64,000 bases of DNA from Psammoneis japonica (taxonomy: Eukaryota), in NCBI GenBank assembly GCA_008632985.1, contig QPGO01000037.1, positions 496,001 through 560,000 of the forward strand. Reading direction: 5' to 3'. Below the pieces are notes generated by a model. That model was not told the DNA's origin, did not search any database, and was given only the letters and a program-made list of their open reading frames with translations. This document shows, one piece after another, positions 3,040-33,710 of this stretch. The first letter of the stretch is position 1, and every line of letters starts with the position of its first letter. Both the position numbers and the translations under genes were made by a program.

Positions 3040-4660
3040 GAAAGATCTGGATCTGTTGCACGCATTTTCAAGGATGGATTGGCAAGCAGAGGTCTGGTTT
3101 TTTGTGAGCTCGCAATTTTTTGGGACAATGACTGGATGCACCGCACTGAATGCTTGCGCGTTCACCAAAAAAAATTTCAGCGACAGGTCGAACTTTGTCC
3201 GTTCGTGAGACATCAAAGAATGCTTGAGGATGGATCATCCAGATGAGGTCTGTTTACGTGCGAGCTCGTTTTTTTTTGAAAAAATCCAGATTTCTCGTGC
3301 TGGGTGCACCCGCGCTTGCCAACAAAATGTTTTCAGCAATGGGCCGAACTTTGTCCCTTCAAAAGACATCACAGAAGGTGTTGGCAATGGTCAGGACCAT
3401 GCACGATCTTTAGCTTGACAACTGCAGACATGTCTGCAGCCAGTCAAATGCCAATTGTCGGCATTTCCTGGAAAGCCATGGCTTGTCTCCCACAAGCAGT
3501 GCGATTTTGGCAAAAAACAGCAGTTTGTCAAATGCAGCAACTGCACCAAATCCGACAATTGGCATTTGAAGGTTGAGGTGTGCAGATCACATGCAGGTCT
3601 GACAGCCCTGATGGGGGCTGGACACACTCACAGACGTGTTCCAGCCGCACATGAACCAAGTCATGCACAAAAATGACATTTGCGCAATTTTTGCATGGCC
3701 CCTGGCTTGTGATCAATCTTTCACCACAAAAAGTGTAGATTCATGCAAACACAAATTTTTTGCAACACTGACAAGACTCGTGTGAGTGTTGCAACATCAT
3801 TGTCGCTGCGCTGTCTGTGTTTTTCATTGCGTCAAAAGATTCGCAACACAACGGATGATTTTCAGCGAAAACATTGCCGTCATTTGGATGTTGCCCAAAT
3901 GTGTCTTTCTATGATGCTGCTTGGCAGGTTTTCCACCTGCAAAGAAATCTCAGTGTAAATCCACTGACGTGCAATCAGCGTTGAGTCTGCTGAGGAAGTT
4001 TGTGATGCACATCCCATGAGGACTTGAATGCCCCACAAAAAACTGTTTAAATGTTCATGCTCTAGAAGCCCACAAAAGTCAATCCGCCCAAGCATTTTGT
4101 GTGAAAATGCTGCATGCACCAAAAGATGCACAAATCACACTCAAAATTGATTGTCGTTTTGTGTGTCACCTGGGACTGGAACACGTCCACAAGTGTTTGG
4201 GGGTGCTCAGAGGCATCGCAAAATGACACGGGCGAAGCATGGGGAAATTGCAAAATCACAAGCCAATTAAAAAATGCCTCACCTGGATGATCCATCCTCA
4301 AATGACAGTTGTGACCATGCAGGACTTTTAGCTCATTGAACAAAGATGTGTCTGCAGCCAGTCAAATGCCAGTTGTTGGCATTTCCTGGAAAGTCGTGGC
4401 TTGTCTCCCCTGAGCAGTGCGATTTTGGCAAAAAACAGCAGTTTCTCAATTGTGGCAACCACGCCGAATCCAACAATTGGCGTTTGAAGGTTGACAAGTG
4501 CAGTTCACATGAAGGTCCAACAGCCCTGATGGGGGCTCTGGTCATGCTCACAAGTGTTTGGGGGTGCTCAGAGATGTCGCAAAGTGACATGGGCGAAGCA
4601 CGCAAAAACAGAAAAAATGCAAGCTTTTTATAAAATGCCTCTGCACGACATTCCATCCTT
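3040..4660. repeat. Cluster of diverged direct and inverted repeats (TE subterminal-like)
   Basis: About 3425-3620 matches about 4343-4540 (direct). About 4188-4280 matches about 4549-4641 (direct). About 3225-3248 is the reverse complement of about 4277-4300. Many differences are CA/TG/CG swaps. Confidence 0.75.
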
Positions 4661-5160
4661 GCAAATCGCTGCTTTTTTTAGGCTTGAATTTTGCCAAATG
4701 GCTCGTAATTTGCATCATTTTTTCTGAATTTCACCGTGCTTCACCACAGTGAAAACCACAAGCCATGAGCACGCGATGGAAGTTTGCCGGCTCCGCACTC
4801 TCATTGGTGCTGTGTTCATCATGTGTTGTGTGATCAGCATCAGATGACAGCACGAAGGCAGAGCACTGCGTTTTTGAGAAATGTTGACATTTGCACCATC
4901 ATTGTTGTGCTTCGAGGTGATGATGCTTCTCGTTTTCATGTGCAATCGGGCGGGAATCTGGACAATTTTTGCACTCAAAAACAAACACTTGTGAACAGCC
5001 TTGTTCAAATGGCATGCAATTCCAGGACAAACAAGGGGGTGACCCCTCTCAAGGGTGGGACATCCCTTGTGTTTTTGACATGTGTTTGCAAAAAGCATCA
5101 AAAATGACTGACATTCACATCATTTGTGATGCAATTGTGGAAAAAACACACCAACGCATT

Positions 5161-5370: not shown

Positions 5371-5523
5371 CAAGCTGTTTGAAGGTTTTTTCCATGAGTT
5401 GTGCACATTCGCAAAAAACACTGTCTCATTTTAGCCGTTTTTCCTTTGAAATTTCTAAAATTCACCCAAAAACAAGGGGGTTCCCAGCCTCAAAAACAAA
5501 TTCCAGGAATCTTGGATAACTCT

Positions 5524-5634
5524 GATTCTTAAAAATGGACGTGACTTGCGCCAGTGGATTTTCGGAAATGCTCATTCTTGAGAATCCCCCCCCACTCATT
5601 TTTGAGAATGCTCGTCTTCCATTTTCGAAAATGC
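5524..5634. repeat. Five copies of a near-palindromic ATTYTYRRRAAT motif
   Basis: gattcttaaaaatg, gattttcggaaatg, cattcttgagaatc, catttttgagaatg, cattttcgaaaatg. Resembles a transposase-binding subterminal array (inference). Confidence 0.5.
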
Positions 5635-7458
5635 TGTGCTTCCTCTCCCAAGCAATCTGGTCCACACAAACTTTGTGGTGAACACCACGAACAGTGCATC
5701 ATCTTAATCTCATCGAGCGTTGTTTGAACATGATGCATTCCATCATGAAGCTCAAAGCAGAAGGGCAAATCCAACTTGAACCACCTCCAAGATGCTGACA
5801 CAAGATCAGCTCCATCACACATTGAATGCCTCCTCTCACATTGTGAGTCTGGGGATGCATCGGCCGGACTCAATGTAAAAAAATGGAGACACAAGCACCC
5901 TGAATGGAGCCAGACATCAAAGAAGCATTTTTTCTGCAACACGATGACTTTGAAATGATGGGGTGACACTCACTTGAGGGCCACGCATTGGACATTTTGA
6001 CAGCCGAACCTGTTTTGGTGCATGCCTGCTCCAGTGCTGGAGACTGCATGTCTGCAGATGGCAACAGTCCAAATCTAAAACGTCCTGGTCAAAGAAATGA
6101 CGGACAACATTTGTTGTTTGTGCAAACAAATGACAAATGTGTTTCAGTGATCACACCCAATGTTTGCACCCAATCCTTCTAAACAAACTGCCATCAGTGC
6201 TTGCCCTCCCATCCCCCTGCATGGAACAAAGCAGACTCTCAGCTTTGCATCGATGTGTCACAACATGTGGGGCTGTTTGTTGTGCACACAAAATTTCAAC
6301 TCCTCGTCATTGACATTCAACAACATGGTGTTCTGCCAATGCAAAGTCATCACTGGCCACAGTGCTGACCACAGCACTGGCCACAATGCTGGCCACAGTG
6401 CTGGCGGTGTGCTGATGCAACCAATGATGCAAAGCTGCCCTCACTCATCATCCTCACATCTCTTTGCTCCATGCATTGGACACTTCTTTCCAGCTCCTCT
6501 GCTTCACATGCTTCCACGTGTGCACAAAAAGAAAACCCCCATTTTCAACTCCCAAGGAAATTCGGGCTGCCAACGCAGTTGCAAGTTAAAGGGCAATCCC
6601 TGGAGCTTGTCTCTCATGCTGACAAAATGTGTGCTGGATGTGCTCAACTGCCAGACATTGACTTGCATGACTTGGTGCAAAGTGAGCGCGCAGATTTTTT
6701 GACAACTGCGTTGCACCACAGCCAAGCTTTTTTTTCACAAGCAGTCATTCTGAGGCAGGGGTCTCCATGATTGGTCAGCTCCAAACATGAGTTTGTCAGC
6801 ACTGCGCTGTTGAAATCCCAGTGGGTGTTCCAAAAATCCATCCATGCACGGCTGTTCTTTGCTTGAGCTGAGAGGGTTCCACAGGCACGTTGGCTGAGTT
6901 TGCTGGCAGAGTTGTCGAGTTGTTTGCAAATGCTGACACCAAAGCCCAAAATGAGCAGCAATTGTTGTTTCTTCATTGGGTTGGAAAAACAAGCAACAGC
7001 ACTTCTTTTTCAGCTGCTTGGCAAGTTCGCTCCACCCTTCAAGCACAAGAAGAACAGCTCTCATCATCCCCACCACAAACCAGCGGCAGTGACAAGCAAA
7101 AAGAGGAAGATCTGGGTGTCACTTTTGCCCAGCACAGGGTCAGCATGCTGACACCCTCCACTGATCTGTGACATCCTGCAAGACAACACAGGTCACAAAG
7201 AAAGAAAGAACACAACAGCAAACTGCAAAAACAACCTTGCCAACAAAAAGGTGGTGCAAAGCATGTGATGCTGTGGCCAGGCTCAACACATGAAGAAACT
7301 GCACAGGGCAACAATGCCTTGCTCCAAAGAATCTCCAATGGCAGCAGGGTGCATGTGCTGGCCACATCAAAGTCTTTGACAAACAAGTCAATGAGTGGCA
7401 GTTTTCAACTAATTTTGCTGATCAGCTGAGTCATGGACCAAAGAACAATTCTGTCAGT

Positions 7459-7507
7459 CAACAAACCAACTCCAACCAACCAACAAACAAACAAACAAAC
7501 AAACAAA
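7459..7507 (+). repeat. (CAAA/CCAA)n microsatellite
   Basis: caacaaaccaactccaaccaaccaacaaacaaacaaacaaacaaacaaa. Confidence 0.8.
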
Positions 7508-9052
7508 GCCAAAAGCCAATGGGACATTCTGGCAAGTCACAATGTTGTTGAATCTCATTGAGAAAAAATGGGGCTGGATGGAAATTCACCAGGGTGTGCA
7601 ACGTGGCAAAAATGGCACCAGCAGTCTGCTGGACTCTCTGCCACATTTGCCTCATCCCTGAAAAACACAGTGGACAAAGAAAGTGTCACAATGGTGCTCA
7701 ACATTGGAAGAAACATGGGTGTGTGGCAGTCGAGTGTTGTGCAGGAGATGCTCAAATCTTGGCTGCCAACAAATGAGGCATCTTGATCAAACATTGGATG
7801 CTCAACAGCTCCCCCCCCTCCCATTGGAAAATGCAGGGTTGTTGTCCACAATGGTGGTTGGCAGGTTGGGAGCACTGTGAAAAGTGAAACACGACACACC
7901 CCAATGGCCTGGAAACAATGGAGGGGAGAGGCTGTGCAGTGGAAGGTGCCAATGCTTGGCAGCCCTCTTTTGCAGTTGCGCTGCTTTTGCTGGTCTTGTT
8001 CAGACAAGAGAAGGGATGGCAGCATTGTGTTTCCAAAGTCAGCAACAGCCAGGCCAAAATTTCAAAGGCAAAGTGACTTGACAGCCAACAGAGCAGTGGC
8101 TGCATCCATGAGAGCATTGGACGGAATGGCAGAATTGTCAGAAAAACAAAAAATTGGGGTCAGGAGCAAGCTGGCTTGGACAACAAAACAGGAAGTTCCA
8201 CCAAATTGGCAGACAATGCCAGGGAGCTGAGGCCAGTCACTGCAGATCATGGCTTGCTTGCAGGTGCCAAAACAGACACACAGTGAGCTTGACATGCAGG
8301 AAAGCAGCACTTGTGGGACCCATCCAGTGTTTGCAACAAAGCCACCTTTCCACTTGAGATGCAACAGCCAAGAATGCAACAAACACAAGGGTCTTCTCTG
8401 CAGCCTGATGACAGTGACAACATGTGTGCTGTCTGGCAAGAAAGAGCAAGAAAAGAGGTGGGTCCTCTCATCACAGCAGAGATCTGCGCTTGCCTGCCTG
8501 GGTCTGTCAGAGGCCGCAACACAGTGGTGTTCAATTTTCTTCACATGATTTATGCCAGTTAACATCATGTGCATTGAACTTTTGTTTAGATTTTTTGCAT
8601 GTAAAAATGAATGACACACTGCCTTCATCATTTGCGTTTCACACGGAAATTTGTCACCTGTTTGTTTTTGTTTGTTTTTGACAATCCATTTGAGTTTACT
8701 CTCTTCTTAAAGTCACACATTGCAATTTGACAATGTTGTTGCATTTGTTTTGAAATGTTGTCTTTGGTCATTGTTTTCAACAGCTCCACCTTGCACACGC
8801 CCCGCCGCATTGTCTGGCATGTCCTCTGTGCCCAAGTCACCCCCATGCACATTTCCTGCCTCATTTTTCCAGCACCTCCCAGAACTCCAGTGCATGGCTC
8901 TCTACCCGGCTTCGAGTGCTCTTTCTGCATGTGCAATTGTCTGCGCACTTCACAACAGTGCATCCTCTTCCCAAACTGCCGGCACATTTGACCTGAGCAT
9001 GCACTGTTGTGATCCACGTGCATTCTGCGCAAATCACAACTGACCTCTTGCC

Positions 9053-12000
9053 ATGGCGGTCAACAACTTTACCCCATCCCACGATGAGGTTGACCCCAAT
9101 CCTTCCTTCCGATTTCCCGATGAGGTTGATTTTGATGATGTGGAACATTTTGCCAATGGCTTTGGAATGGAGCAGTTTGGTCCCAAGCTCAAAAGCACAG
9201 CTGCAACACATGCATCCAAAAAGCAGTTTTTGGAGTCAACGAAATGGACTCCCTCTCAACAATTTCTCACTCTTCCCTTCCTTTGCCACAAGCCAAAGTC
9301 ACGTTGAATTCCACATGTTGCAAAAGTCATCCGCACCAACAATGTCATCAGGAAAACTCTTGGACACCCTGACGTTTGGTCTCACATCAAGACTTGGGGT
9401 TGGTCCCTGAAGAAATCCTGTGCACTGAAAGGTCAATGCATTCTTTGTCATCAAAATTTGGAGGATGCTCTCCATTTCTCCAAAACACCCAGAGAGACAG
9501 TCAAAGAAGAGGAACACCGTGTGCAACTTCACCACAACATCAAAGCCATGGCAGAATTTGTTTGCACGATTGTCGCGGTGACGACCCAAATGACCCTGTT
9601 TCTGGCAAGCCTTGTTTCCATTTTTTCATGGTGCAAAAGCCTCCAAGAATTGATTGATGACTGTGCACAAGACCTTCATGGTGCATTCTTTGTCACCAAA
9701 ATTGCAGTGCATCACTTCCAGCACAATCCAGATGACTTTGACCATTGGTTCATGCAGATTTTTTGCAATGTCAAAACCCAAAAGGAGTGGCGCATGTTTG
9801 TCAACAGCTTTCCAGTCTCACGCAAATCCAATGACCCGGGGCCCCAGGTGGCCAATGTCAAGGAATTCATCACACCGGACAAAATCGGCAACACAAAGAA
9901 CTCTGTTGCAATGGCAGGTGACTCCCTCACCCGTCGGGAGGCATGCAAAGAAAAAATCAATTGCATGATGAATCATGAATTTGGGGAGCACTGTCCCAAG
10001 GAGCAACCTGGTGTGCAACCCAAGTGCAGCAAGTTGCTCACAATTCTTTGTTGCAGAATGTGTGATCAGAGGGCTGACCACATGGATGATGACAACAAAC
10101 AAGAGTGTCGGTCCAAAACCAAATGCAAAATCAGGAGGACCCGCAAAGATGGCACCTGTTTGCACGACGGTGTGTGCCCTCCCCCTTTTTCCTTCACCTC
10201 CTGTGTGCACCCCTTTTCTCACTTGTCCATTTTTTCTTCTGTTGTCATTGTGCACATCACAAGAGCCTTCTTTGACCATCCCCAACAAGAAGTCAAGGCC
10301 TGCATCACGCTCGAACCTGGCACATCCTCCGTCATCTGGCGACGTGCCGTTGTCCAGGAAGGCACACCACACTCTCACTGCCAACCTTCCCACTTTGTCG
10401 GAAACTGTGGATTTGGCAAAATCTTCTTCTTCCTCAATGGGTCCCCCCTCCAAGCCACCCGCCACTCAGCCGGTTGTTGCTGGGAAATGCCTGGTTGCAT
10501 CATCTCCTCCACTGGACCCCAACAACATGTTGTGGCTGGACAAGTCTGCTCTCTGCCAGCACTTTGACCCATCCAAGTGTTGTTCTGTCACCTCAGAGGA
10601 AGTTGCTGCCCATGTGTCATGCCTTCACATCATTGACAAGGCGACCAACACTGAGGGCATGCTGCACCATTCCACCACTGACTTTTACCTTGCAGACAAC
10701 CTGAGGGAAAACTGGCACATCTTTTCCAACAAAACTCCCACAAGCAATCCCACCACCGCCTCCCGTGTCAGAACTGAGTGCCCTCCTCACCTGGATCACT
10801 GTTTGGAGGAACTCTCCATCACCCGACAAACCAACTCCATGCACAAAGGGCACTTTGGGTGCCTTCACATGTGCATCCCTGCCCTCCTGCTTTTTATCTT
10901 GTTGAAGGGTGAGTCTGATCTAAAACGTGACGGATTGCTTGCCGTTGAGTCCAAAGACCGATGAAGGATCAAGCTCAGCTGTGCCGGGCAATCACATCAT
11001 CCAAGGATGCCCAGCCCACCAAATCAGCTAAACCCAAGGCCACATGCTGTCTTGCTGTTTTTGAGCCAGACAAAAACTTCAATGCCAATGAGTCATCCAA
11101 AATCAAGGCCATGGTTGCAGACATTCTTGACTCAACTCAGCTTTGCGAAAGCAAGGCAGAGCTTTGGAAACTGAGCAATCCTCTGCCATTCAACTGGTTG
11201 CTTTGGTGCAAGGAGCACTCAAAAGCATTTTGCCGTGAAATGGGTTTTCTACATTTCAAATGGGAGGACGTCACCATGCAGGGATTGTGCATGTCCCAGG
11301 GCATGTTCTGTGATGGGCACTTTGACAGAAAAAACTGCACCTGGTGTCAACATGGGAAAATGCCGCAGGTTGTTTCTTTGTCATGGATGCCTTTGGCGAC
11401 ACATGGTCCTTCAAGGCAGTCACCAACAGCAGAAATCCCGTTGGTCAATGCTGCAATGACAGGCATGACATGAAGCCGATGCTGACTTGGATGCAACACA
11501 ATCAAGCTCAGCTGGACTTTGTGCTTCAAGACATGGACCTGTGACACAACAGCCCTGCCCATCCTGACTGTCCGCTGTCCTCCAGCACATTCAAGCATCT
11601 TTCCCTGGATGACAGCATGCCGTGGAATGATGTTGTCATCGGCAGAGGTGGCAACATCCCCCACGTGCACATGGATTGATTGAAGTTCCTTGCACTCCCC
11701 ATCAGGGACTTTCACTTGTCTGCCCCAGCCACAGCTCTGCGCCATTTCAAGAACATTGTGCGCCGATCTGGGCCTGACCCAAAACAAGTCACAAGACTGG
11801 CCATCCTTGCCGGTCATCCAATGGGATGCCACCACTTCTGCTGTGTTGGGGACAACCACTTGCCCAACCCATGTTGTGAAGGCTCAGACCCCTTCACACA
11901 ATTCACCGATTGCTTGGCGAATGAATTTGGTGTGTTGTTTGGGGACCCACAGGTGGGTGGGATTGGCCCCATCAATTTGACATGCGAGAAGTTTGGTGAG

Positions 12001-13953
12001 ATTTTTCTTGTCAACAGGCAAACAAGCACCACTGACAACCCAGTTGACCTGATGGTTGACGAAATCCATGCAGCGCTGCTTTGGATCAATGACCACGTGA
12101 TCACCGATGAGTTCTGTCCCAATTTAATGGAACAACGCTGCAAGGCTGCCTGCGATGTTTGGGCACACCGAGGAGCAGATTCCACCAAGATTCATCTCAT
12201 GTTGGTGCTGCATTGTCTTGCACCATCTGGTGTTGCAGTGAAGGACCACCCGTGTTTGAACAACATGGTGCACCCTGTGTTCAATTCCGGAGCTGCTGCT
12301 CGACTGGCCCACATCAACCCAGAAGAACAACCGCTCATGCACCAATGGATGTCATTGGAGACCGGGACCAAAGAGCATGGTTGGAACGGAACAGAGCACA
12401 AACTTTGTGAGAATGCCAATGGTCTGTGTTCCAGACAAAACCTGTTCACATTTTCTCCATCAGGTCAGCATCTGCACAAACCCTGTGGATTGGCGGAGTG
12501 TCAAACAGTGGAGTGCATCGAATCCGACCTGAACCTGTGCAAGCAAAAAGTTGCAACAGTTCACAATGGAGTTGCAGCTGACAACAAATTGCACTCTTTG
12601 TCTGGATCATCCAACAGCAACAATTCCTTGTCATGTGATGGACTTGCTGCTGACAATGAATTAAACTCATTGACAGGAACATCCAACGTGGATGAATCCT
12701 TGACACATGACGGAGTTGTGGCAAACAATGAAACAAACTCCTTGCCAGAAGAATCCTCCAGCAACAAAGAAAGTGAGAGAGCAGAGACCGTCAGCTGCCA
12801 ATTGCCGTGTGATGGATTGGTCGATGACACAGTGGTCAACAGACAAAACAAATCAGATTGCTGCGAACCCATCATTGCTCCAGAGGAAGAGGAGTTTTCT
12901 GTTGATGCCACCGACACTTGTGCAAAGGCACCTGACCTTTCACAATGTCCCAATCTGGATGTGGATGAATGCGTGGATGCAACTTTAGTGCAAGTCTCAC
13001 ATTGGTGCATTCTCCCGTTCTGTTTTCTTGTTTGTCTTTGCAACTTGTGTGTCGAGTGCTGTTGTGGCTCATGCAAGACTCTTGCTGCAAATTTTTCAAT
13101 GATGCACAGCTGCAATGGCAGCACCAAAATCCTGTGGCTGTGCATGACAAGGCCTGTCAATGCAGGAGAGCTGTCCTTTGACAAGCTTTGTTCTGACCGT
13201 GGGGTGGAGGTGGCGGCAAACACTCAGCATCGAAGAGACAAGGCAAGGTGTCAAGTTGTGGAAACACTCTGCACGAACGCCACTGTTGAGGCACGCGCCG
13301 TCTCTCTGCAGGACGGAAGTGCCACTCACCACCTGAATTGCAACATTTCTGCAAAGGATTTCATCTTTTGCGTGAAGTCGTGATTCGGCGGTGAGGTTGG
13401 TTTCAAGAACAGCGGACTCATCCAGATTTGCATGGACTGTTGCTGGATGCAACACAGCAAGTGGAACATGATGTCTTTTGGCAATCGCTTCTTCTGCGAA
13501 AACCCAAAAGAGATGATGCAATCATTGTTGCATCCGAAGTTTGAAAGGTGTCACATCACAGTCCCGTGCAACCTGTGGTCCCTCACCCAAGTCGTGCGCA
13601 ACTTGGAGCACATAGAAGAATGTGCACTGATTCAATGCATGGACCACAAAATGGTGCTGGACGAAATTACGATTCGCCAAACATCGCTCGAAATTGCAGA
13701 GAATGACAGGGGCGATTGGCTTGGAAAGCCATCCAACCAGGAAGCCATGCATTTGGGAGTCACAGAACAGGAAATTTGGGAAACACTTCCAGAAACAGAA
13801 AGGGACACTGTCCTAGACTTTGTAAAGCAGCTTCGGAGTTGCGATCTGACAAAGCCATTCAGGTTCTTTTCCTTTGAGAGAAGAGTGCCAAATTGGCAGA
13901 GCTGCCTTGACCCTTGGCCAAGGTGGTTTCTGGAGCCATCCATCAACGAATGA
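9053..13953 (+). pseudogene. Large degenerate gene of unknown function (probable TE cargo/accessory ORF)
   Basis: Chain of co-oriented protein-like segments (9053, 9458, 9975, 10961, 11680, 13432) broken by frameshifts and TGA stops; Tyr is essentially absent. It converges tail-to-tail with the Plavaka-type transposase. Confidence 0.55.
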
Positions 13954-14103
13954 CGTTGATGGACTCAGTTTTACGTGCAGCTTCAATTCCTTAAATCAGG
14001 TGAGTGATGCTTGTCCTGGTTGTGTCGTGGGTTGCCAAAATTGCACATGTCCCGGCAATGTGGGGCTCCAACATGCTGCTGAATTGCAAGCTGCTGTTTG
14101 CAT

Positions 14104-17100
14104 TTACCGTTGTCGAAATTGCCCCTCAAGCGCCATTGTGAAACTTGTTTGCCCATGTTTTTCTCCTGTCTTGAACTGCCCAAACATGCTTTGTCTTTTT
14201 GTGTGACTTGGAGGTGCCTGGTTGCTCCTCGTAAACCAGCAATTTGTTGCCAACTGCTTCAATGGGAACCAAAAAAAGTTTTGGAGTGTACATGGATTTT
14301 TCCCGGTGGTCAAATCTTGGTTTTTCACTTGGTCCAATTGCCAATGACTGATGAGGTTGGTGTGTTGCAAGCACTCCACCATGGCGCGCTTGCCTGCCTG
14401 GTGAGTGCAAGGATGAACAATTGCAAATGACTCACCATTGCTCTCTCTTTGAAAGAAAGAATGAAGCCATGAAGGGAAGAACAAATCACCGCACTGAGCG
14501 CCAAAGTCAATGTTTGCCCAGTCGTGAACAGCCCCTTCACTGTCACAGTCTGGGTGTGCATGGCAAGTGTCGATTCCGTTTTTGTTGCAATGCTCAGTTT
14601 TGCAAAGAATGCTCTCCCGTTGTTTCTCTTGGTCACCAACACAGTCCTTCCACTTTTTGCCTGCAAAGTTCAGGTGCATCAGGTGCACCTGGCATTGTTT
14701 TTGTTTCCCCATCCAGAGGAACAAAACTGCCTTGTTTGCTGCATTGTGTTTCAACATGTGTGAGGACCCACCCAGATGGTGTTGCACCGACTCGCCCACC
14801 ACACAGATTTTGTGATCCGCCTTGTTTGCGATCCATGGATTGGCGGAAATGGCGCGGCAAACCCTCATTTGGTCTTCCATGCAAGACGCCACCTGGCCCA
14901 AGAAGACATCAAAGCTGAGTTGTTGAGCCATCGCCAAGGGCAATTGAAAAGTTCTTCAACAATGACTCACCAAGGCCAGCATCAAAATTCATGGCATGGT
15001 GGAAGAAGAACAGGAAGATGGGCAAATGCATCAATTTGTGGAGTTTTTGCAGCTTCCATCCCGCCCCTTCGTGCCTTGGGGAGAAATGGACTGTGCAAGC
15101 AATCAGCAATCAATTTTTTCAATGTCTTGTGAAGGTCGTTTCTGTCACTGGGCAGGTTGCCAAGCTTGTGCCATGCATGGAATGCAAGCATGTCTTCAAG
15201 TGGCTTGACATGCTGGCAAATGCTGCATCCAATTGGGTGTCTCTTTTTGTTTGTGCACCTCCGCTTGCCCTCTCCATCATCATTTGAATCATTGTCATTG
15301 TTTCTCACAGAACGGCCAGTCTTGCAGGGATCGTCGGATGCATCGTGTCACCAGATTCCCCCTCACACGGCGGATGATCATCATTCTGATTGCATTCTTG
15401 GGGAATGCAGTGACGGTCTGTTTGGAATTTTGGCATGCATTGGCCCAAGGGAACAGACGGTGCCTCTGTGTCTTCCTTGCTGAAGCAAGAGGTGCAAGCC
15501 TCATGACCCTCCTTTGTCAGCAACAGCAGGCAGAAGACAAAGGCCATTCCCACCCAGTGATGAGACTTTAAGAAGGCAAGCGACATCGCCCCGCCTTTGA
15601 AATTGGTTTGCAAAAAAGAAGAGCTGCAAGTTGAGTGGTGTTTCCCAAACATCTTTTCTGCCAGTCTGTCTGCCTTGCTTCTAACGGAGTCAGTCATGCT
15701 GTCTGCAAACACACCAATCTCCCTTTTCAGAGTGCCATTTTCATGCAGGTGCATCATGTTGCTGGCTGTGGAAAGAGTGACACCAAACAGTTGCTCCCCA
15801 AAGTCCACACCCAGCAAGCTGTTGGTTGAAACATTGTGCTGCTTCATGCAGTCCAATTGTTCCCTCCAGTGATTCCTCTCTTTGTTGTCAAGACTGTCAT
15901 CATTGGCATTGTCCTGAACTCACAACAAGTCACAAGCATGGACAAGCTTGCATTCCTTCCAAGGGTCGTCAATGTCATTGCATCCCGTCATGCAAAAATG
16001 GGAGCAACGTTGATGACAATTCTTTGCACCGCACCTGCCCACAAGGCAATCTCCGCTCTTTGCATCCCCGCTGATTGGGGCTGTGGTTGGAATCACATGC
16101 AGGTGATGGATCTTGTCTCCTCTTTGCACACAACACCCAGAGCCACCCCGTTCCATGACATCAAGCAGAGGCTGAAGTGTGGTTTTCAAAACCTTGTGGC
16201 AGTCATGGAGACTTTGCCTCTTTTCTGACTTGTGTGCATTGGACTGCTGTTTGGCTGCAGAAGATGACATTTTTTCAAGGTGGGGAATGCATCCAAGAAC
16301 TCTCCACTTTGCCTTGTTGTGCCACTGTTTGAAGGCAACATGCGCCGAGGTCACTGTGATGGGTTCTCTGCAAGAAATCCCATTGAAGCTGTCTGTCCCA
16401 TCTTGTCGACATGAACTGTCAAACATTCAAGGAACTGTTTTAGTGGATCCTTGACTCTGGCCAAACATGTGCTCCTGTGCCACTCTCCGGCCAAGACGCA
16501 TTTGTTGCCAGGGCCCTTGGCAACATGCATGCCAAAAGGATGGTCTGGGTCTGCAAGATTGCTTTTCTCCGCCCATGTGCAAGTGTCTGACATGCATGAT
16601 TGCCACACTTCTTTGAAGTTCCATTGTGGCGCCATTGCCATTTTCTCACCACGTTTGCCACTGGCATTTTCCAGGTTTGCCGGCATCATCTCTCATTCTG
16701 GTCTGGGAAACGATTGCAAAAGAGTTTCCATCAGTGCACTGCGACACGAGGCATTTTTGCACCCAGCTTGAATGTGGTGCCGCAATGCCTTTTGACAAAA
16801 GAGACAATGTCATTGCGCAGGTGGAGCGGCACTCTGCAGTTGCCTGTCAGCTTGCTCAGCTCCACACAGGCAGCATTTGGGTTGCTCAATGATGACAAGC
16901 CGGCGAAGGCTACCTCGGCTGGGTGTGGGGAAATCTTGCCCAATCTGCTGTCATCCAACAGGGAGGACACATCCTCTTGAGACAATTGTGCATTGCCTGT
17001 CCCATTGTCATCGGAAAAATCCATGGTGATGTCCGGAAGCGCGGTGAAAGATTTCACTTCTGAATTGCTGCTTTTGTCTGAAAGCACATCCAGCAACATG

Positions 17101-17546
17101 AAATTGTCCTCGTCTTTGCCACAGATGGAGGAAAGAGGGGACATGTTGTCTTCGAATGCTGGTGATCATGGAGCATCAGTTGGCCACTCTGATGTCCCTG
17201 TGGAGCCACCCATGTGGACATTGGAAATGGAGGCTCCTTGTCTTGATCGTCTCAATCCATGTGCAGAGGTGTCGTTGGATGACAAGGACATGTCCAATCC
17301 CCTGGAACTTGTGTGCCAAACATTTGCATTCCCAGAGGCGCTCCACCAACCAACCACTTTGACACAATCATTGGGAAACAAGGTGGGTCCCGACGCACCT
17401 TGTCCCGCCAAGTTTGCCATTTCATGAGCGAAAGAGAGGCATTGTGGATTGTGACTCAAGTGACCCAATGTGCACTGGAATGACTGCTTGCAACAAGGAC
17501 AGATGATTGCTTCTTTGCCCTCATTGTCAGACTGGGGTGGTGCCAT
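14104..17546 (-). mobile_element. Plavaka-type (CACTA/EnSpm-related) transposase pseudogene
   Basis: Motifs recognised in order: N-terminal CPCC..HLSH zinc finger; NLADPDHPF...GEWH..TC...DP..QFL..LTVHVDKMG; WRVLGCIP; LHDCH; ISGDAKSGDCLVGRCG; VDFG...MMH..ENG; QTNF.GG; GWKLQKLH.L.HLP...NFDAG.GE..LK. The expected Tyr residues read C/H. Confidence 0.8.
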
Positions 17547-18057
17547 TTTGCAGGTTGTGAGGAAAGAGACAGTTGCGCTTTGGTGCAAATGATGGTGCAA
17601 ATGGTTGCTGCTCAGGTTTGGTCATGCGAATGGTGTGTGCAGTGAGTGGCGACGGAAAACAAGACATGAAATTGGCGCGCAAATTGTGCTCATTCATTTC
17701 TTTGCATTGATGAATGCTTTTGTGGTCACCTGTCAAAAGCATGCATTGGGATCATTGAATGCTTTCAGATTGAACAATTGATGACAATGTGAAAATTGCC
17801 AACGGAAAGGAAAGAGAGCAAGTCAGAATGTGGTCTTCATCATGCGATGTGGTCACCACTCATGGCAAAAAAAATGAGTGAGGTCCAATGGCCATCAGCT
17901 CCAGTGGAAGAAATTTGAAGAGGAGAACAGTCTGAAACAAGAGAGAAGAGAAGAAAAGATGGAGGTGGGCTGCAGCTTGGCAAAAGAAGAGCCAAGTTGC
18001 TGGTTCAGCACAGGGAGGAAGGATCACTCCGGGGACCTGCACCTGTGAAGAGACTGC

Positions 18058-19140
18058 ATGGACATGTTTTGTTCATTTGGGTGCAGCAGTCACACAAGGA
18101 CTGACTTTGGCAACAACGTTCCATCTGTTGATGCAATTTGGAAGATTTGTTGGAACAACACAGAGAGGGAAGAACAAACCGTCAAGGAAAAATGGAAAGA
18201 AATGTGGGAAAACAAATGCAGGACCATGAGCAAGGTGCATGATGACATGCAGGAATGGAGCAAAGAAGCAAGGGAATGTGTGCACACTGCCCGGCAATGT
18301 TCTCCATTCGCAACAAGGACAAGCACGCAAGTGTGATCATCGAGCGTGCAAGGAATGCTCACAGAACCAGGCAGCATTGGAGCTCAACAGCAACACACCC
18401 AGACAGGCAAGGAGAGCTGTTTTGTGAAAGCAGTTGGTTGCACAACGATTGCAAGGATGAGATGCTAGATCTTTCAGCTGCTGGATCAAGGGAGGGCAAG
18501 CTTTGTTTGGCAATTGACAAGCAAGATGTTGGGGCATTGAGAGCAGAGTCAACCATCAGCTTGCCCACCCATGGATTGGACCCAAGTGGGAGATGCAGAC
18601 CACTTGCATTGGACAACGGTTTGGGAGGTGTGTGCTCACTGGTTGTGGACAAAGGGCGTCGCATTTGATGCCAGGAAGCTGGTGGAATTTTTCAAGCAAC
18701 AAGTCCTGCAAGACACACTGCACAGGTTGTGGTGGTGCAACAAACTGGAGTTCTTTGGATTGACGCCAAGGACGGTTGACAGTTGGACATTGGAGATCAT
18801 CAAGAAAATTGACTTGGGTGAGAGGATTGCAGCTGTTGTTGTGAGGACAAGCATGCGGCAATCCGGCAAAGACAATGTCTGAAGACAATGTTTGAAGATG
18901 AAGAAAGAAAAGATCTGCCGTGATTGCATCAAGCGTTTCATTGGCTGTGTCAGCGAGGCAACAAACGCATTTGATCACATGATTGATTGCTCACACAAGG
19001 GAAGGCACAGCGATTTTGTCATTGTCCATTTCAAGGAGGACGCCATGGAAGAATTGGGTTGGAGATCAGTTTTGGTGCCAAGTGGCAATCGGAGGATCAG
19101 AGAACATGGACAAAGCTCCAGCCATTCACAGGGATCAATT
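18058..19140 (+). pseudogene. Degenerate ORF of unknown function, divergent from the transposase
   Basis: In-frame segments 18571-18882 and 18892-19140 are separated by a single TGA. Composition is protein-like with no Tyr. Confidence 0.4.
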
Positions 19141-19168
19141 TTCACATGCGAATCTGCACAGTTGAAAG

Positions 19169-19620
19169 TGCAGCATGCATGCAGACAAAAGGTTGTTTTT
19201 GTCACGCCCTTTGTGACATTCAAAGGCTGCAACACGTTGCCGTGATGCATCAACTCTCATCAGTGGCTGTGTGTTGCACTCCTCCCCATGTGTCACGCGT
19301 CCATGCGGCTCTTTGCTGACGTGTGCGGCACTGACACTGCACGGTTTTGGCGGAACAGTGTGGGTGCGTACGAAGGAACATGCAGAACTGCACAGAGTTT
19401 CACGCGTTCGACAGTGATCAACGTTGCTGCAGACAACTCCCACTCAGGGTTTCGAACCCCTGGCCTCCTGCCCAATGGTTGCGATGAACCACTCCGCTGT
19501 GAATTCACAATGCAGCATGCATGCAGACAAAAGGTCATTTTTGTCACACCCTTTGTGACATTTAAAGGCTGCAACACGTCGCCGTGATGCATTGACTCTC
19601 ATCAGCAGCTGCACATTGCA
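19169..19620 (-). mobile_element. TRIM-like miniature LTR element: 110-bp terminal direct repeats, 232-bp interior
   Basis: Repeats 19169-19278 and 19511-19620 both run TG...CA. AAAG flanks both sides (19165-19168, 19621-19624). On the minus strand a polypurine tract GGGGAGGAG abuts the 3' repeat. No clear PBS. Confidence 0.65.
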
Positions 19621-19942
19621 AAAGTTTCAAATGGAATGATCGAGCCAGATGTCGAATTCATCGTTGACAATTGACCATAAAATTTGAGCTGAACATTTCA
19701 TCTCTTTAATTCAAATGAATGCAACCAAGGATGTTGTCAAAGAAAACACAAACATTGCCAACCACAATTGTTTGGGAAGGAGGTTGCAGTTAAAAATGCA
19801 CAAAGAGGGGAGGTGCTGTCACCATCAGAGTGTCAAGAAAGAGGTTTGAAATTTTGAAAAGCCGGTCTTCCTCTGAAGACCTGCTGCACCACACGATTGC
19901 CCAAACTTCACGCCGTTGCCACAACACATTAAGTCAAGGGCC

Positions 19943-21198
19943 ATGGGAAGGAAAAAGAAGAAGTCGGAGAAGGAGAGGGCAGCAGAAGAGGTGCCGCCGA
20001 ACAGCCCGAGGCTGACAGTGGCATTGCAGCGGTCGGGGGCTGCTGGTGATCACAAATTGCTGAAGAGAGAGGTGGGAGAGGTGGCACGGAGAGAGCTCTT
20101 CCCAAAAGTGAGGTTCCTTGTGAAAGCAGACATGGCAAGTGGTGGCAAGGTGTCACAGCTGACACGGAAAAACATGGCAGATGGCAAGTTCAGCAAGCAT
20201 GAATGGGCAGGATTGTGGGAGGGCTGGGCAAAGAAAAGGGCGTGCTCAATGTGATCAAGGTGAAAAGAAACGCCGTGTGTCAGATGACAATGAAGAGTGT
20301 GATGAGTGGCAAGTGCGGCGGAGGGGGCACATGTCCAAGGTGGGAATGGGTGTGGTGCTGCCAATGAGAGTCTCCTTTCTTGAAGTCATCATGACAGAAA
20401 AAGAAGCCGGGGAAATCTGCAAGAGGAATGAACAAGCAAGGAAGAAAACCAGGAAGCAGAAAATGGCAAAGCCAAGATTGAAGAAAAATTCCTGGCAACT
20501 TGGGAGGATGGGGCTGTTGACACCATTGTGTTTGAGAAGTGCAAGAACAGGGAGGCGCGCATGCATGGTTCCAGGACAACATCCCCAAATGCACGAAGAG
20601 CACTGTGATGTAGAGAAGGATGGCAGAGTCAGGCAGCACCAAGGCTGCAGATCTGGCAATGGCAAGCAACAAGGCACTGGCCCTCTTGATGATGGAAAAC
20701 TGCTGGAAGGTTTGGGAGCACAAAACCACACAGGAGGGAGATGATGAAGGGGGCAAGGAGGAAAAACCAGTGCCGTTGCACACAGACCCATCGCGACAGC
20801 GTGACTCTTGGAAGGATGAAGGAACAGTGCACTTCAATGCCCTGCTTGAGGAGACAAAGAAAGACAGAGCAAGTGAGCAGGGAGTGCATTTCGACACACG
20901 ACACACTGACGGAAAGAAAAAGGAGAGCAAAGGTGAAGGAAAAAAGGAAAGAAACACTAAAAAACCAACGAATTCAGAGCAAAGAATGCAAGCAGCAACA
21001 GAACTTTCCAGTGACAACAAGGAGGACAACAATGCAACAGATGCACCAGCTGACAAGAGCAATGAGGAGGGCGATGGAGCCAGCCAAGAAAACAGCAGTG
21101 GAAGTGAGAAGAATGAAAAACTCAGTGCAAGCCAATTGGAAATGTGGAGCAACCGGCACCACAGCATTGACTCAGTGTCAATTGATGATCAATGTTAA
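19943..21198 (+). pseudogene. Plavaka-associated accessory ORF, degenerate
   Basis: VARRELFPKVRF...W..LW and ASNKALALLMMENCWKVW...PLHT...SWKDEGTVHFNALLEETKKDR match the recalled diatom TE motif SDEAFALL.LENYW...KYT...GWS.EG..RFN.L...V..DR. Confidence 0.6.
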
Positions 21199-21716
21199 AA
21201 AGCAAAAGCAGTGCATCACTGTTGATTGAGAAGAGTGGGCTGAGTTCATTGCAAGCATCATTTTAAATGTAAAAACTGGTGTGTGACGTGAAAAAAACCA
21301 ATGACATTAATTTTCAGCTTCTGCAGTGGAGGAAGGCACATGAACAATGTGAAAAGAGGGGGGCTTTTAGAAAGTTAAAGTTGATTTCTTGCTGTGAAAA
21401 AGATGTCTCCACAGCTGATTTAATTGGCTGTTGCAGGTTGAAATTTGTCACCAGCTGCACAACTGACAAGGTTTGAAACCACAAAAATGTTGACAACAAA
21501 ATGAACAAAAATCACTGCAACAAGGCATGAGGTGACCGCCGCGCATTGCGGCCTCTGATGTCTGTCTCAGCCATCTGCAGAGTCAGCAAGCTTGTGCTCT
21601 CTCTGTGGCAGGTGCTGCATCAGTGCTGGAAGGTGTTGCCACAGCACACTGCAATGGCCAAAAGCATTCTGAGCATGCCAAGACTCATGAGAAGAAACTT
21701 TGTTTTTGTCGAGAGG

Positions 21717-21746
21717 TGCTGCTGCTGCTGCTGCTGCTGCTGCTGC
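21717..21746 (+). repeat. (TGC)10 microsatellite
   Basis: Ten perfect TGC units. Confidence 0.9.
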
Positions 21747-22626
21747 GCTGTGCCACCAGCACAACTTTGTGTGCCGGCACAATGCACAAATGTGTGAAAC
21801 AACAAGATGCTTTCTGTGCATCTGGGAGAGAACATAGTCAGTTTGCTCAGCTGGCGCTGACAAGGCGTGTCTGCTTGAAAGAAAGATTTTGTTCAAAAAG
21901 GGGGCTGGCACAGCAAAAAGTTGGCGCGCCACTGTGCCAAGCAGAGAGAGCCAGCTGCCACCCACAGCACCCCTGCCAGGCAGCTTTGCTGGACAGCGCC
22001 ACTCTCAAGAACTGAGGAGCAACTGTGTGGCACTGCACCTCTCCCAAAATGAAGGCTTGAGGGGTGCTCCCAGCACTTCAGGCAGTTGTTGCCATGCCAT
22101 GGCAGGCTTTCCGTCGGGAGGGGGATTTTGCACATCATGCGCACTCGCACGTTTCATTTCACATGAGAAAGTCCACATCTGAATGAAATTAATGTGATGA
22201 TGCCGCAAGCATCTTTGAAATGCATTCATTGATGTTGTGATGACATGCACATGCTTCCAATGTTGGTTCCTCCTCTCTCAGGTGGAACTCTCTACATCGA
22301 AGTCTGAAACCGAAAGATTTTGGATTGCCGCGCTCGCCACTGTCAGAAAACAGAGGCGTGACGATTGCTTGCACCAATCATTTTGCTGCATTTTTTTGCC
22401 TGTTAAGTGAGTTTTGCGCCGGGCGTCCAAATTAATTGCAACACACAACGGTTGTTTTTTCGAAACAGGGTGCTGCGGTGTGCACTTCTGCGTGACCCAC
22501 GTGACCTGACTAACATGCCTTGGGGCCAGAGCAGTGCGTGGTGCTGGTTGTTTTGCTTCTGACCGTTCTGTCTTCTGTGAGGTTTCACGAGTTCATCTGT
22601 GCATGTTGATGTTGTCTAATTCGAGG

Positions 22627-22855
22627 TGCGGTGGCTCAAGTGAAAGTGCAAGTGTGCGAAATTTGCGCATTGATGCAGTTGTCTTTGCCAAATGGTTGGT
22701 TGCAACTTGCGCCCATTCCATTGTTTCTGTCCACACTCGATCTGCGGTGGCTTGAGTGAAAGTCTGAGTGTGTGAAATTTGTGCATTGATGCGGTTGTCT
22801 TTGCCAAACAGTCAGTTGTGACTTGCGCCCATTCCATTGTTTCTGTCCACACTTG
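22627..22855. repeat. 116-bp tandem duplication
   Basis: Copies start at 22627 and 22743. Differences are nearly all CA/TG/CG swaps (aaatggttggttgcaac vs aaacagtcagttgtgac). Confidence 0.9.
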
Positions 22856-23768
22856 TTCCGCAGGATCCTTGCTTGCTCCTTCTCCCACTCCGCAGCTCCC
22901 GCTTTTTCCAGCTCCTCCTCGGTGAAAAATCTCCCACCAGTCTGTGGTGGTGCTGCCGCCCATGCTGCCTTTAGCTCCTCCATGGTTGAATCATCCCTGG
23001 GCACGTCGACCATTTAGACTAGATTTCGTGCGCGATGACCGCTCAGAAGCAACGGCTGAAATGCAAACGAAGCACGGATGGAATTGCACGTGCTCCTGCG
23101 CATTTTCAGCAAACTCACTGCGACGTTGCGTCCTCCGATCCTTGCATCTGTGAGGTTCAAATTGAATCCATACATCACTTGTAAGTGCTGACACCTGGAA
23201 GGTCACCTTGTTGCAGTTCGACGTGTTTGGATCTAGTTTCTGACGTTGCCAGTTCTCCTTGGCATGATGTGCGCAGCTCTGCAGGGTCTTTCTTGGCACT
23301 TCTGAACGATCGCACTTTTTGTTCCCACAATTTCTCCCCGACTGATTCGATGGCATGCAAAAGAAACACAACGACCTCCCCGGCGGCGAAAGCCAAAGTC
23401 GCCGAAACCAAACAGAATTGTCGCCGGGACGTGGCGCGTCTGTACCTGCATACGTCCGTCTGCACTGCGTGCTACGGTACTACAGCGCCCCGTATCAAAA
23501 CTACATTAATGTTTATTTTTTGCTTTCTTTTCCTTTTCTCTTCTTCTTCTGGCTGGGAGGAACTGCTGGATAGCCTGGGTATTATGTTGATCGACCGCGC
23601 GCGATACCGACCCGCGACGCAAAAAGAGACTTCGACTTCATTCGCTTCGCAGTTCGCAGAAGATACAGTGTATGGCGTTGTTGAGTTCACAGTGCTGTGT
23701 GACCGCAAGAGCATATCTGCCGCTTCTTCTTCTTCTTCTTCTTAACAGGTTGTATAAGTTGCATTGAA

Positions 23769-24627
23769 ATGACTGATTTGGAAGAACCGCTTGTTGCAAT
23801 GGAGGCAGGCGAGGGCACGCCGCTGGTGGACGGTGCGGATCGTTATGATGCCGAGAACGAGCCTCCACCCCTGACAGAAGTCAAGGAGAATACCTTGAAG
23901 GAAAAGATTGTTGCTGGAGCCGGCGCAGTGACCTTTGCAACCTCGGTCGGGGCCATGGTGGTGGAGAGTCACCCCTCTGTCTATGTGTCTGGCGCTCTGG
24001 GTGCTGCTCTCGGACCCTATGCTGCGTTTCAGCAACAGAAGATTACTCAAGTAGAAGCACTCAAGGAAACCAACGGACGCATGGCGGAAGAAGTTGATCA
24101 ACTCAAGTTTGAAAACATGAGACTCCAGGCGAGTGTATCTGAATTGGATGAGAGTGTGAAGCATTTGAAGGAAATGCAAGACACGCTTCATACCATACAG
24201 GCGACGGAGGGGCAGTCGATTAAGGAATTGGAACGGCAATTGAAGGAATCGCAACAGATTCTGCATTCCATGAAGTCAAACTTGAAAGCGGATATCTTGC
24301 AAAATTTAATTTCGGTAGTTCTGGCTTGTGATGATGATGGTGATACGATTCTAAGCGACGACGAGATTAATCAACTCATTGGCAAATTGGAGGGTTTGAG
24401 CGGAGTTCAATTAAAGGAAGAAAAACTGAAGCAGATCATTATTGATAACGGACGCTCGTTGAATGGTACGTTTCTGAGAATGAAGTCTTTGTTTTATGTT
24501 ATTTTTCTGTCTTAGCTCATCTCTTGCCGCGTCTGCTTACTTTGTTGAAGCCATTATGAAAGTGGCGAGAGAACTGCTCGCCGGTGAAGACGCGAGAGGA
24601 CGTATCTTTGAATTCGTTGAAAAGTAA
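23769..24627 (+). CDS. Conserved diatom-type membrane-anchored coiled-coil protein with EF-hand-like loop; 2 exons (23769-24465, 24551-24627)
   Basis: Two hydrophobic segments, a coiled coil and a DDDGDTILSDDEI loop. GT..AG intron 24466-24550 restores the C-terminus AIMKVARELL...FVEK*. Normal TA content. Confidence 0.85.
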
Positions 24628-24999
24628 CGAATTCTTTTGATTGCACTGTAGATAAGAAGGATGCAGTTTTTAAAGGATTGTCTGCTTCTACACTACTGCC
24701 GTACCATACAATAGATGCAATACCGTAAAAGAGATTTTCTTTTCTGTTGCGGTCTAACCAGATTTTACTTTGGGGTGCCTACAAGACTGTTTAGTGTTTA
24801 GTAGTGAAACACAACAATGCAACAAGTAAAGGTGAAAGTATATGCTATCGCTACTTGTACTACGCATTCCGCGAACAGTGAGAAAATCAATCTACGTTTC
24901 GCCTACCTCGAGAAAACACCAGAGAGCAAGTTGCCTCGTTTTTCATGCCTGGTGCTTAGTACGACAACGAGTGGTTTGACAATCGGTGCCATCCTGGAT

Positions 25000-26870: not shown

Positions 26871-27093
26871 GGCACGTACGCACCGTACCGTATGCTGCCG
26901 ACTGTTGTGACTGATTATATGTTGATGGATGGACAGACTGACTTAGAGAAACATGGTGCGTGACGTGATAATACCAAGGAAACCGTAGAACCTACGAAAG
27001 AGAAAAAACGCATGCAAAGTTCTGCATGAAAGATGCAGATGGGCTTCGCACTGTCAATGATGCTCTCGCTGCTTGTTTCACGAATAACGCACA

Positions 27094-31710: not shown

Positions 31711-31789
31711 AGTCTTTGTGGGGAGTTGTCAACACACACTGTTTTCTCAATCAGTTTGTGTTTGTCAAATTCAGGCAGTGAGAATTGAT

Positions 31790-33696: not shown

Positions 33697-33710
33697 TTGG
33701 CAATGCATGC

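Follow-up and report, generated by a model that had tools for sequence, protein, structure and literature searches.

Flanking bases of the TA sites that survive in TA-poor, repeat-derived blocks of a Psammoneis japonica contig

The window analysed here is a 64-kb stretch of Psammoneis japonica DNA (GenBank assembly GCA_008632985.1, contig QPGO01000037.1, positions 496 001 to 560 000). Two kinds of DNA alternate in it, with sharp borders on a 250-bp map of TA and CG counts. In about 43.5 kb of the window the dinucleotide TA is nearly gone, CG is mostly low and TG + CA is almost doubled; the remaining 20.5 kb has ordinary dinucleotide frequencies. This TA-normal DNA carries long open reading frames (ORFs) with Myb, protein-kinase and FG-GAP domains, and the window is therefore a piece of a eukaryotic chromosome. 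The subject of this report is the small set of TA sites that remain in the TA-poor blocks, chiefly in the stretch 5461–23240, where the bases flanking the survivors are skewed far beyond chance. The blocks and the reference DNA, to which no strand is assigned, are distributed as follows.

1–23000: TA-poor block 1, from the 250-bp TA/CG count map; includes 5461–23240
5461–23240: the stretch studied; TA-poor, CG-poor and TG/CA-rich, with 66 TA left
25251–26750: TA-poor block 2, from the 250-bp TA/CG map
30751–35000: TA-poor block 3; observed/expected ratio (O/E) of TA 0.05 and of CG 0.15
37501–41750: TA-poor block 4; plus strand G-rich from 39001, with a reverse-transcriptase (RT) relic on the minus strand
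43501–48750: TA-poor block 5; plus strand G 0.44 and C 0.14; O/E of CG 0.84 and of TA 0.08
57251–60750: TA-poor block 6, from the TA/CG count map and dinucleotide O/E
62251–64000: TA-poor block 7, from the 250-bp TA/CG map
48751–57250: largest TA-normal stretch, with three Myb-domain ORFs; reference
23001–25250, 26751–30750, 35001–37500, 41751–43500 and 60751–62250: further TA-normal stretches; reference

Between positions 7001 and 8000, 65 TA are expected and one is observed. The O/E values for 5461–23000 are 0.05 for TA, 0.37 for CG, 1.68 for CA and 1.77 for TG; across the TA-poor blocks they range over 0.05–0.13 for TA, 1.61–1.94 for CA and 1.23–2.05 for TG, with CG at 0.15–0.37 in most blocks. 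The G + C content of the blocks (0.45–0.58) is similar to that of the TA-normal DNA. Among the NA dinucleotides TA alone is depleted: AA has an O/E of 1.27 in 5461–23000 against 1.24 in normal DNA, GA stands at 0.99 and CA is enriched. The Myb, kinase and FG-GAP genes lie within the normal DNA, and relics of a Plavaka transposon and of RT elements lie within the blocks.

The contexts of the 66 surviving TA sites were classified by their two flanking bases (R, purine; Y, pyrimidine). There are 40 YTAR sites, comprising 21 TTAA, 15 CTAA/TTAG and four CTAG; 23 mixed sites, comprising 12 GTAA/TTAC, five CTAC/GTAG, four ATAA/TTAT and two ATAG/CTAT; and only three RTAY sites, two of them GTAC and one ATAC, with no ATAT or GTAT. 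An earlier note on this DNA, made by eye, had stated that the survivors are mostly YTAR and that RTAY is nearly absent, and the counts agree. The three exceptions that it placed near 14288, 19368 and 23170 are exactly the three RTAY sites counted (again unstranded).

14288–14291: surviving GTAC, T at 14289; read on the minus strand, a Tyr codon (TAC) that the Plavaka relic has retained
19368–19371: surviving GTAC, T at 19369, from the NTAN count
23170–23173: surviving ATAC, T at 23171, at the block edge where TA density returns to normal

The skew is confirmed against three expectations for the 66 sites. Local base composition predicts 16.5 YTAR, 33 mixed and 16.5 RTAY (chi-square p = 4.6e-11). 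In the order RTAY/mixed/YTAR, a first-order Markov model predicts 13.1/32.6/20.2 (p = 3e-7), and the window's TA-normal DNA, which holds 733 TA (227 RTAY, 383 mixed and 123 YTAR), predicts 20.4/34.5/11.1 (p = 3.4e-21). The comparison of NTAN inside and outside the blocks that the earlier note had called for thus reveals a skew beyond composition, nearest-neighbour structure and normal DNA alike. The 122 TA of the blocks outside 5461–23240 behave in the same way (4 RTAY, 62 mixed and 56 YTAR; p = 2e-10). All TA-poor blocks together (43 500 bp) hold 183 TA, of which six are RTAY, all six GTAC, 84 mixed and 93 YTAR, and for this pooled set the first-order Markov expectation is rejected at 2e-11. 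The same skew recurs in the Plavaka region, in the RT blocks and in the other blocks, that is, in unrelated elements.

The skew is specific to the TA core. In the blocks the share of R..Y flanks is 3 per cent around TA and 18–29 per cent around the 15 other dinucleotide cores. The CG core, which is also depleted there, has flanks distributed 25/49/26 per cent with no skew. CpG decay (CG>TG/CA) is a separate process in the same blocks, blind to the flanks, and block 5 has lost TA while keeping CG. The reference does not depend on coding: RTAY, mixed and YTAR make up 32/52/16 per cent in Pfam-supported ORFs and 31/52/17 per cent in other normal DNA. The precursors from which TA could arise by back-mutation are also evenly represented in the blocks, with 3997–4855 CAN + TGN for each base N, as against 24–170 TAN.

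Compared with normal DNA, TA in the blocks has a density of 0.0125 at RTAY, 0.103 at mixed and 0.356 at YTAR sites; these survival ratios take the normal DNA of the window as a stand-in for the ancestral sequence of the blocks. The order of loss proposed earlier, RTAY before mixed before YTAR, is borne out by these densities, while the purine/pyrimidine classes themselves proved too coarse, as both CTAG and the base at +2 reveal. Among the single tetranucleotides, ATAC/GTAT (none in the blocks, 114 in normal DNA) and ATAT (none against 46) have disappeared. They are followed by GTAC with a survival ratio of 0.042, CTAG with 0.056 (five against 42 in normal DNA), ATAA and ATAG with 0.068 each, CTAC with 0.104, GTAA with 0.175, CTAA with 0.436 and TTAA with 0.656. 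CTAG, although a YTAR word, is thus as depleted as the mixed sites. In 1-kb bins the share of RTAY falls with the O/E of TA (0.32, 0.24, 0.12, 0.05 and 0.03) and that of YTAR rises (0.16, 0.19, 0.42, 0.49 and 0.61), a gradient that is partly simple mixing where bins astride the borders combine normal and mutated DNA.

These values are largely described by a half-site model with four parameters, in which the half-site on each strand contributes independently. It reduces the deviance from 232.7 (9 degrees of freedom) to 26.7 (6 degrees of freedom), and the survival fitted for each base that can follow the A is 0.85 for A, 0.41 for G, 0.21 for C and 0.08 for T. The second flanking base matters as well. 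TAAA/TTTA is carried by 93 of the 183 survivors, as against 79 of the 733 normal sites, and A at +2 gives the best survival inside each +1 class (TAAA 0.555, TAGA 0.248, TACA 0.123) except that of T, where TATA contains a second TA. TAAAA has kept most of its normal density (1.08 compared with 1.27 per kb), and by +4 the flank effect has faded (p = 0.15). The order of survival is accordingly TAA > TAG > TAC > TAT, and an A at the second flank protects.

The products of the loss can be read directly in relics of two kinds of transposon, all on the minus strand.

14107–17699, minus strand: Plavaka-type transposase relic, interrupted by stops and frame changes; identified through homologues of its read-through translation; Tyr columns turned into Cys or His
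43325–45343, minus strand: RT relic (RVT_1), a 672-aa open frame; PF00078 match at E = 4.5e-9, 29 homologues
39600–41561, minus strand: second RT relic, identified by tblastn with the same homologues; Tyr columns 39622–41504

The read-through translation of 14912–16426 (minus strand, X at stops) has 494 homologues at E <= 0.001 and 233 at E <= 1e-10, and six of the eight top homologues tested match the Plavaka family PF18759. The RT homologues give 34 high-scoring segment pairs on the minus strand at 39–42 kb. Conserved-Tyr columns were defined by at least eight aligned homologues, Tyr in at least 30 per cent of them and His and Cys each below 15 per cent; homologues with less than 1 per cent Tyr were excluded (six of 150 for Plavaka, one of 29 for RT), and the columns counted are those whose codon in the window is TGY, CAY or TAY. 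The two relics have 23 such columns, now occupied by 13 Cys, eight His and two Tyr. In six ordinary homologues given the same treatment, 49 of 59 columns still have Tyr, one has Cys and none has His (Fisher 4e-10 for Tyr retention). This shows that TA was lost by mutation to TG or CA in both relics. Tyr codons were retained in two of the 11 columns with a 5' pyrimidine and in none of the 12 with a 5' purine. One Tyr codon kept in the Plavaka relic is the GTAC at 14289 (column 14290), where one diverged contig has G. At Ile, Val and Leu columns there are few unbiased events; for Ile these are two ACA in the Plavaka relic and one ATG in the RT relic.

No pairing of a mutated with an unmutated sequence was found inside the window, either among the 16 short pairs of a self-BLAST or by tblastn of all ORFs of at least 60 aa against the window. 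Internal repeats of the blocks differ by TG versus CA at 36 sites, by CG versus TG/CA at 38 and by TA versus TG/CA at six. The 36 double differences are what would be expected if both copies had been struck independently, and CG ancestors could give the same result. The near and the far flank are thus unreadable from these repeats, because a TG/CA pair may descend from TA or from CG.

In a Pfam scan of block ORFs of at least 90 aa (125 + 105, without the 672-aa RT frame) no family rose above the cut-off, the sole weak match being AvrLm4-7 under it, and when the Plavaka pieces, read through their stops, were scanned together with five further ORFs, sub-threshold noise was all that came back. 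A 567-aa open frame at 11680–13380 (plus strand) is Tyr-free and rich in Cys and His, with a 72-bp tandem repeat at 12566–12767; two protein searches returned no relatives of it at near or shorter lengths. The RT relics at 39001–41750 and 43501–48750 are G-rich, with plus-strand G of 0.40–0.44 and C of 0.14–0.17, and have O/E values of 0.08–0.13 for TA and 0.64–0.84 for CG. Their base skew goes beyond what the loss of TA alone can account for, and it gives rise to spurious open frames, rich in Pro, Ser and Thr and as long as 825 aa. The TA-normal segment 41751–43500, richer in A + T (G + C 0.44), has a G-rich RT block on either side; it may have been inserted later or have been protected.

The repeat nature of the stretch was examined with contigs from one DNA read set, the only one in which the stretch is present; no RNA read set was listed as containing it. 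At 85 per cent likeness or more, 3904 contig pieces match the 17.8 kb, 781 of them at 99 per cent or more. With thousands of diverged relatives among the contigs, the stretch is therefore built of repeat families. An independent contig build repeats the TA-poor sequence with three differences in about 2.0 kb and three in about 1.0 kb. Among 40 of the 1319 contig differences that were listed, about four touch a TA; in other contigs two of the surviving TAs read TG and two CA sites of the window read TA. Not all of the TA-erased DNA is high-copy today: the segment 5461–8425 has near single-copy contig depth and long, almost identical contig pieces, yet is equally TA-poor. A repeat of about 100 bp that occurs twice, at 19169–19269 and 19511–19611 (91% alike), belongs to a very abundant short family, the summed contig depth of its bin being 73 400 compared with about 60 for single long contigs.

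The earlier note had left open whether the 5' purine or the 3' pyrimidine drives the loss. For the survivors this is no real alternative, as the two are one statement made on the two strands. What can differ is whether the near flank (T-[A]-Y) or the far flank (R-T-[A]) of the mutated A is read, or whether the whole site is recognized and the base pair that is hit is chosen otherwise. These possibilities predict different outcomes at Tyr codons, for which Y-TA-Y sites have given seven TG (Cys) and two CA (His) with two Tyr kept, and R-TA-Y sites six TG and six CA with none kept. The comparison of TG with CA at YTAY sites, suggested in the earlier note, consequently leans towards the near neighbour without deciding the matter. 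When rates are set by class (kY 2.19, kR 0.52), the near flank has a log-likelihood of -13.1, a coin toss one of -14.6 and the far flank one of -20.4, and under the far-flank model at least seven TG of nine has p = 2e-4. The evidence leans weakly to the base adjoining the mutated A.

We think it probable that the skewed contexts are the kinetic footprint of a flank-dependent TpA>TpG/CpA hypermutation, whose agent would be a DNA adenine deaminase of the TadA/ADAT2 type. On this explanation the hypermutation would have run nearly to completion in the repeat-derived blocks and left the genes between them untouched, the rate at which each TA is lost being set by about two bases on each side. Loss would be fastest where T or C comes after the A (equivalently, where the T on the other strand is preceded by A or G), slower with G after the A and slowest with A, above all AA. 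With rates graded in this manner, ATAT, ATAC/GTAT and GTAC would vanish first, and TTAA, CTAA/TTAG and TAAA/TTTA would remain. Both DNA strands would be struck, with silenced repeats as the aim, by a sequence-reading enzyme that recognizes T-A-Y, preferably not followed by A. The signature called enzyme-like in the earlier note would be in keeping with this. A TadA/ADAT2-type deaminase preferring T-[A]-Y on DNA appears the likeliest agent because a T before the A is required, because the 3' base leans to pyrimidine and because such an enzyme has been proposed for Bigelowiella natans; the requirement for an adjacent T corresponds to the depletion of TA alone among the NA dinucleotides.

Several observations weigh against this explanation or parts of it. 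The survival ratios depend on normal DNA standing in for the ancestral sequences of the blocks. The half-site model still misfits (p = 1.6e-4), the observed and fitted counts being 5 and 15.1 for CTAG, 11 and 5.4 for ATAG and 0 and 4.1 for ATAC. TACG, the natural context of TadA, has a survival of 0.078 and is less depleted than the TATB words (B, not A) at 0.022–0.054. With regard to the near flank, the contrast between 7:2 and 6:6 is non-significant (Fisher 0.37), and base-specific rates do not separate the models (near -17.0, far -16.7, coin -14.6) because both His outcomes of the Y-TA-Y sites lie at T-TA-Y, where the near-flank model expects Cys. By the base before the codon (Tyr columns 14526–16527 and 39721–44917), Cys:His is 4:1 for A, 6:0 for C, 2:5 for G and 1:2 for T, so that a post hoc 5' split of A/C (10:1) from G/T (3:7) fits better (Fisher p = 0.0075). 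The product contexts TGY and RTG rise equally and are of no help in choosing between the flanks. In the G-rich RT blocks the 36 plus-strand survivors comprise 22 RTAR, 12 YTAR, two YTAY and no RTAY, and only one flank seems to count there. Finally, three Plavaka homologues with 0.1% Tyr (P0071, P0081 and P0099) have Cys:His of 7:0, 2:4 and 1:7. These opposite biases imply that a factor other than the flank, for example the strand, picks the pair that is hit. The three, which are full-length relatives of window 14912–16426 (minus strand) in public data, appear to be hypermutated copies in which the mainly struck strand varies from copy to copy. The one-sided pattern of the G-rich blocks was also considered as proof of strand-specific attack and set aside, since it may owe something to the ancestral composition of these purine-skewed elements.

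In sequence, an A>G change on one strand is a T>C change on the other, and the NTAN, half-site and Tyr-column counts all fit both. The lesion might accordingly lie on thymine, the T of R-[T]-A being modified in silenced DNA (e.g. oxidized by a JBP/TET-like enzyme to 5-hydroxymethyl- or 5-formyluracil) and mispairing with G to give T>C. Enrichment of 5-hydroxymethyluracil at TpA and TpC has been reported in dinoflagellates. There is no sign here of such a base or enzyme, and for the only experimental system, B. natans, the main text of the preprint discusses adenine deamination alone, without proof (10.64898/2026.01.13.699255); we regard a thymine lesion as unlikely, though deserving some weight. 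The flank rule could also be physical in origin rather than a matter of base reading by a protein, through the opening or flexibility of the TpA step, the stiffness of A-tracts or the position of nucleosomes, with TAs beside A-runs less accessible to a TA-specific agent. The strongest protection does come from an adjoining A-run, as in TAAA and TAAAA, and neither flank by itself is a good predictor of which pair is struck. Nevertheless, the order at +1 (T > C > G > A) runs stepwise through the four bases, depletion is strong for CTAG but not for TTAA, and an effect gone by +4 is shorter than nucleosome-scale features, all of which renders a purely physical cause rather improbable. We give similarly little credence to the possibility that the TAs present are recent arrivals, made by C>T or G>A from CA or TG and held at a balance of creation and removal, rather than survivors. 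CA and TG are abundant in the blocks (about 8960 each, strands pooled), and the contig differences at TA and CA sites described above are of the kind that such arrivals would leave. However, the precursors are equally frequent for all four 3' bases, and the 7-fold range of TAN needs a context-dependent removal even at balance, which leaves the deduction of flank-dependent loss unchanged; the two Tyr codons kept at conserved-Tyr columns are more simply survivors.

Three further explanations carry little weight. TA>TG belongs to the WA>WG spectrum (W, A or T) of polymerase eta, and error-prone repair of this kind, drawn to methylated and deaminating repeats, would suit the coincidence of CG decay and TA loss in most blocks. 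It is nonetheless very unlikely: AA is undepleted, block 5 lost TA and kept CG, and the loss, nearly total, affects a single dinucleotide. Editing of repeat RNA by an ADAR-type enzyme, fixed through reverse transcription, would explain the T before the A, since ADARs favour U before the edited A (10.64898/2026.01.13.699255; sections of PMC10661471). Yet their hot spot is given in the same sections as 5'UAG, while TAG survives here at 0.41 compared with 0.21 for TAC and 0.08 for TAT; moreover, Plavaka, one of the elements affected, is a DNA transposon, and the 13 Cys and eight His outcomes indicate that both strands were struck. RNA editing is highly improbable. Equally hard to credit is the absence of any mutational preference, with the contexts reflecting composition, native element sequence, selection or a sequencing artefact. 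The lack of ancestral copies leaves room for it, but the composition, Markov and normal-DNA expectations are all rejected, the skew is TA-specific and the same in unrelated elements, and the independent contig build repeats the sequence.

The closest known system is that described by Mettrop et al. in a 2026 bioRxiv preprint on giant-virus and virophage DNA in B. natans, the main text of which proposes an ADAT2-like candidate (10.64898/2026.01.13.699255). As reported there, the 231 de novo changes in mutation-accumulation lines are TpA>TpG and TpA>CpA only and are confined to integrated viral DNA, and clusters of TpA depletion with CpA + TpG enrichment in the genome are tied to reverse transcriptase and DDE transposase domains. 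The loss of TpA in P. japonica is probably the same kind of process in another lineage. In both, TpA is lost and TpG/CpA gained, here with Tyr turned into TGY or CAY at 21 of 23 columns, and foreign or repeat DNA is hit while host genes are spared, although here the apparently low-copy segment 5461–8425 is depleted as well. The values for 5461–23000 (0.05 for TpA; 1.68 and 1.77 for CpA and TpG) lie within the cut-offs given in the preprint (Rho of TpA at most 0.43, of CpA + TpG at least 1.52), and the depletion is far deeper here than in the B. natans nucleocytoplasmic large DNA virus region (O/E 0.05 against Rho 0.45). B. natans is a chlorarachniophyte in which the process was seen live, at a very high rate per generation in some lines, whereas only the end state is visible here. 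The main text of the preprint contains no flank rule, and the words 'context', 'flanking', 'trinucleotide' and 'diatom' are absent from it. Searches of the diatom literature, judged by titles and the beginnings of abstracts of the papers listed, gave no description of TpA hypermutation, and the flank fingerprint seems not to be in print.

Repeat-induced point mutation (RIP), known from Neurospora and other ascomycetes and dependent on duplication and on passage through a sexual phase, likewise wrecks repeats and spares genes through dinucleotide-specific transitions with ranked contexts, the ranking being CpA > CpT > CpG > CpC. Unlike the process seen here, which destroys TpA without lowering G + C, RIP makes TpA from CpA and lowers G + C. 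RIP itself was rejected as the cause: C>T at CpA with enrichment in A + T is not what the blocks display, their G + C of 0.45–0.58 being like that of normal DNA.

The natural target A of TadA is preceded by U33, in the context U-[A]-C-G. TadA/ADAT2 and the TadA-derived adenine base editors deaminate an A that follows U or T, and the T-[A]-Y lean in the blocks resembles this; unlike for TadA, C at +1 has no advantage here over T, other words are more depleted than TACG, and A at +2 protects. Early adenine base editors have a preference for YAC, although literature searches for it returned the term in unrelated senses only. The natural motif is listed as 5'ACG in tRNA-Arg in table 1 of PMC10661471, and the B. 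natans preprint cites a report of DNA editing by amphioxus ADAT2 (10.64898/2026.01.13.699255). ADARs share with the present process the A>G change, the preference for U or T before the A and the targeting of repeats, but UAG is not favoured here, and ADAR, whose substrate is RNA, would mark one strand of retroelements only. APOBEC3 editing of retroelements is another defence by deaminases, in which each enzyme has its own short context; its target, by contrast, is cytosine in single-stranded cDNA and its changes are G>A or C>T, not A:T>G:C. The APOBEC3 contexts 5'TC and 5'CC, extending to four bases, identify the enzyme from mutation footprints, according to sections of PMC10661471.

Reference DNA of the window also includes a tandem Myb cluster at 50941–57378 (minus strand), with three neighbouring ORFs of 280, 507 and 1368 aa that match one another and each contain Myb DNA-binding repeats, in TA-normal sequence.

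TpA-specific hypermutation has otherwise been described in the one 2026 preprint only, in another lineage and with no known enzyme. What is added here is the gradation over four bases, the exception of CTAG, the effect of the +2 base and the use of TG versus CA outcomes as a test. Footprints such as a flank rule are what allowed the APOBEC enzymes to be traced from mutation spectra, and the present one lets candidate deaminases or thymine modifiers be tried on short oligonucleotides and allows the process to be recognized and dated in other genomes. For annotation, it is a warning that open frames in such DNA which lack Tyr and are rich in Cys and His should be taken as mutated relics. Makers of base editors would have an interest in a natural enzyme able to turn A:T into G:C in DNA within a defined context. 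It is conceivable, though we hold it only tentatively, that a defence present in at least two distant protist groups marks silenced repeats and invading DNA by adenine deamination, in duplex or transiently open DNA and under a rule of four to six bases, with T-[A]-Y favoured and A-runs refractory. If true, this would be an A:T counterpart of fungal RIP, and the fingerprint described here could be used to find the enzyme, a natural adenine editor of DNA.

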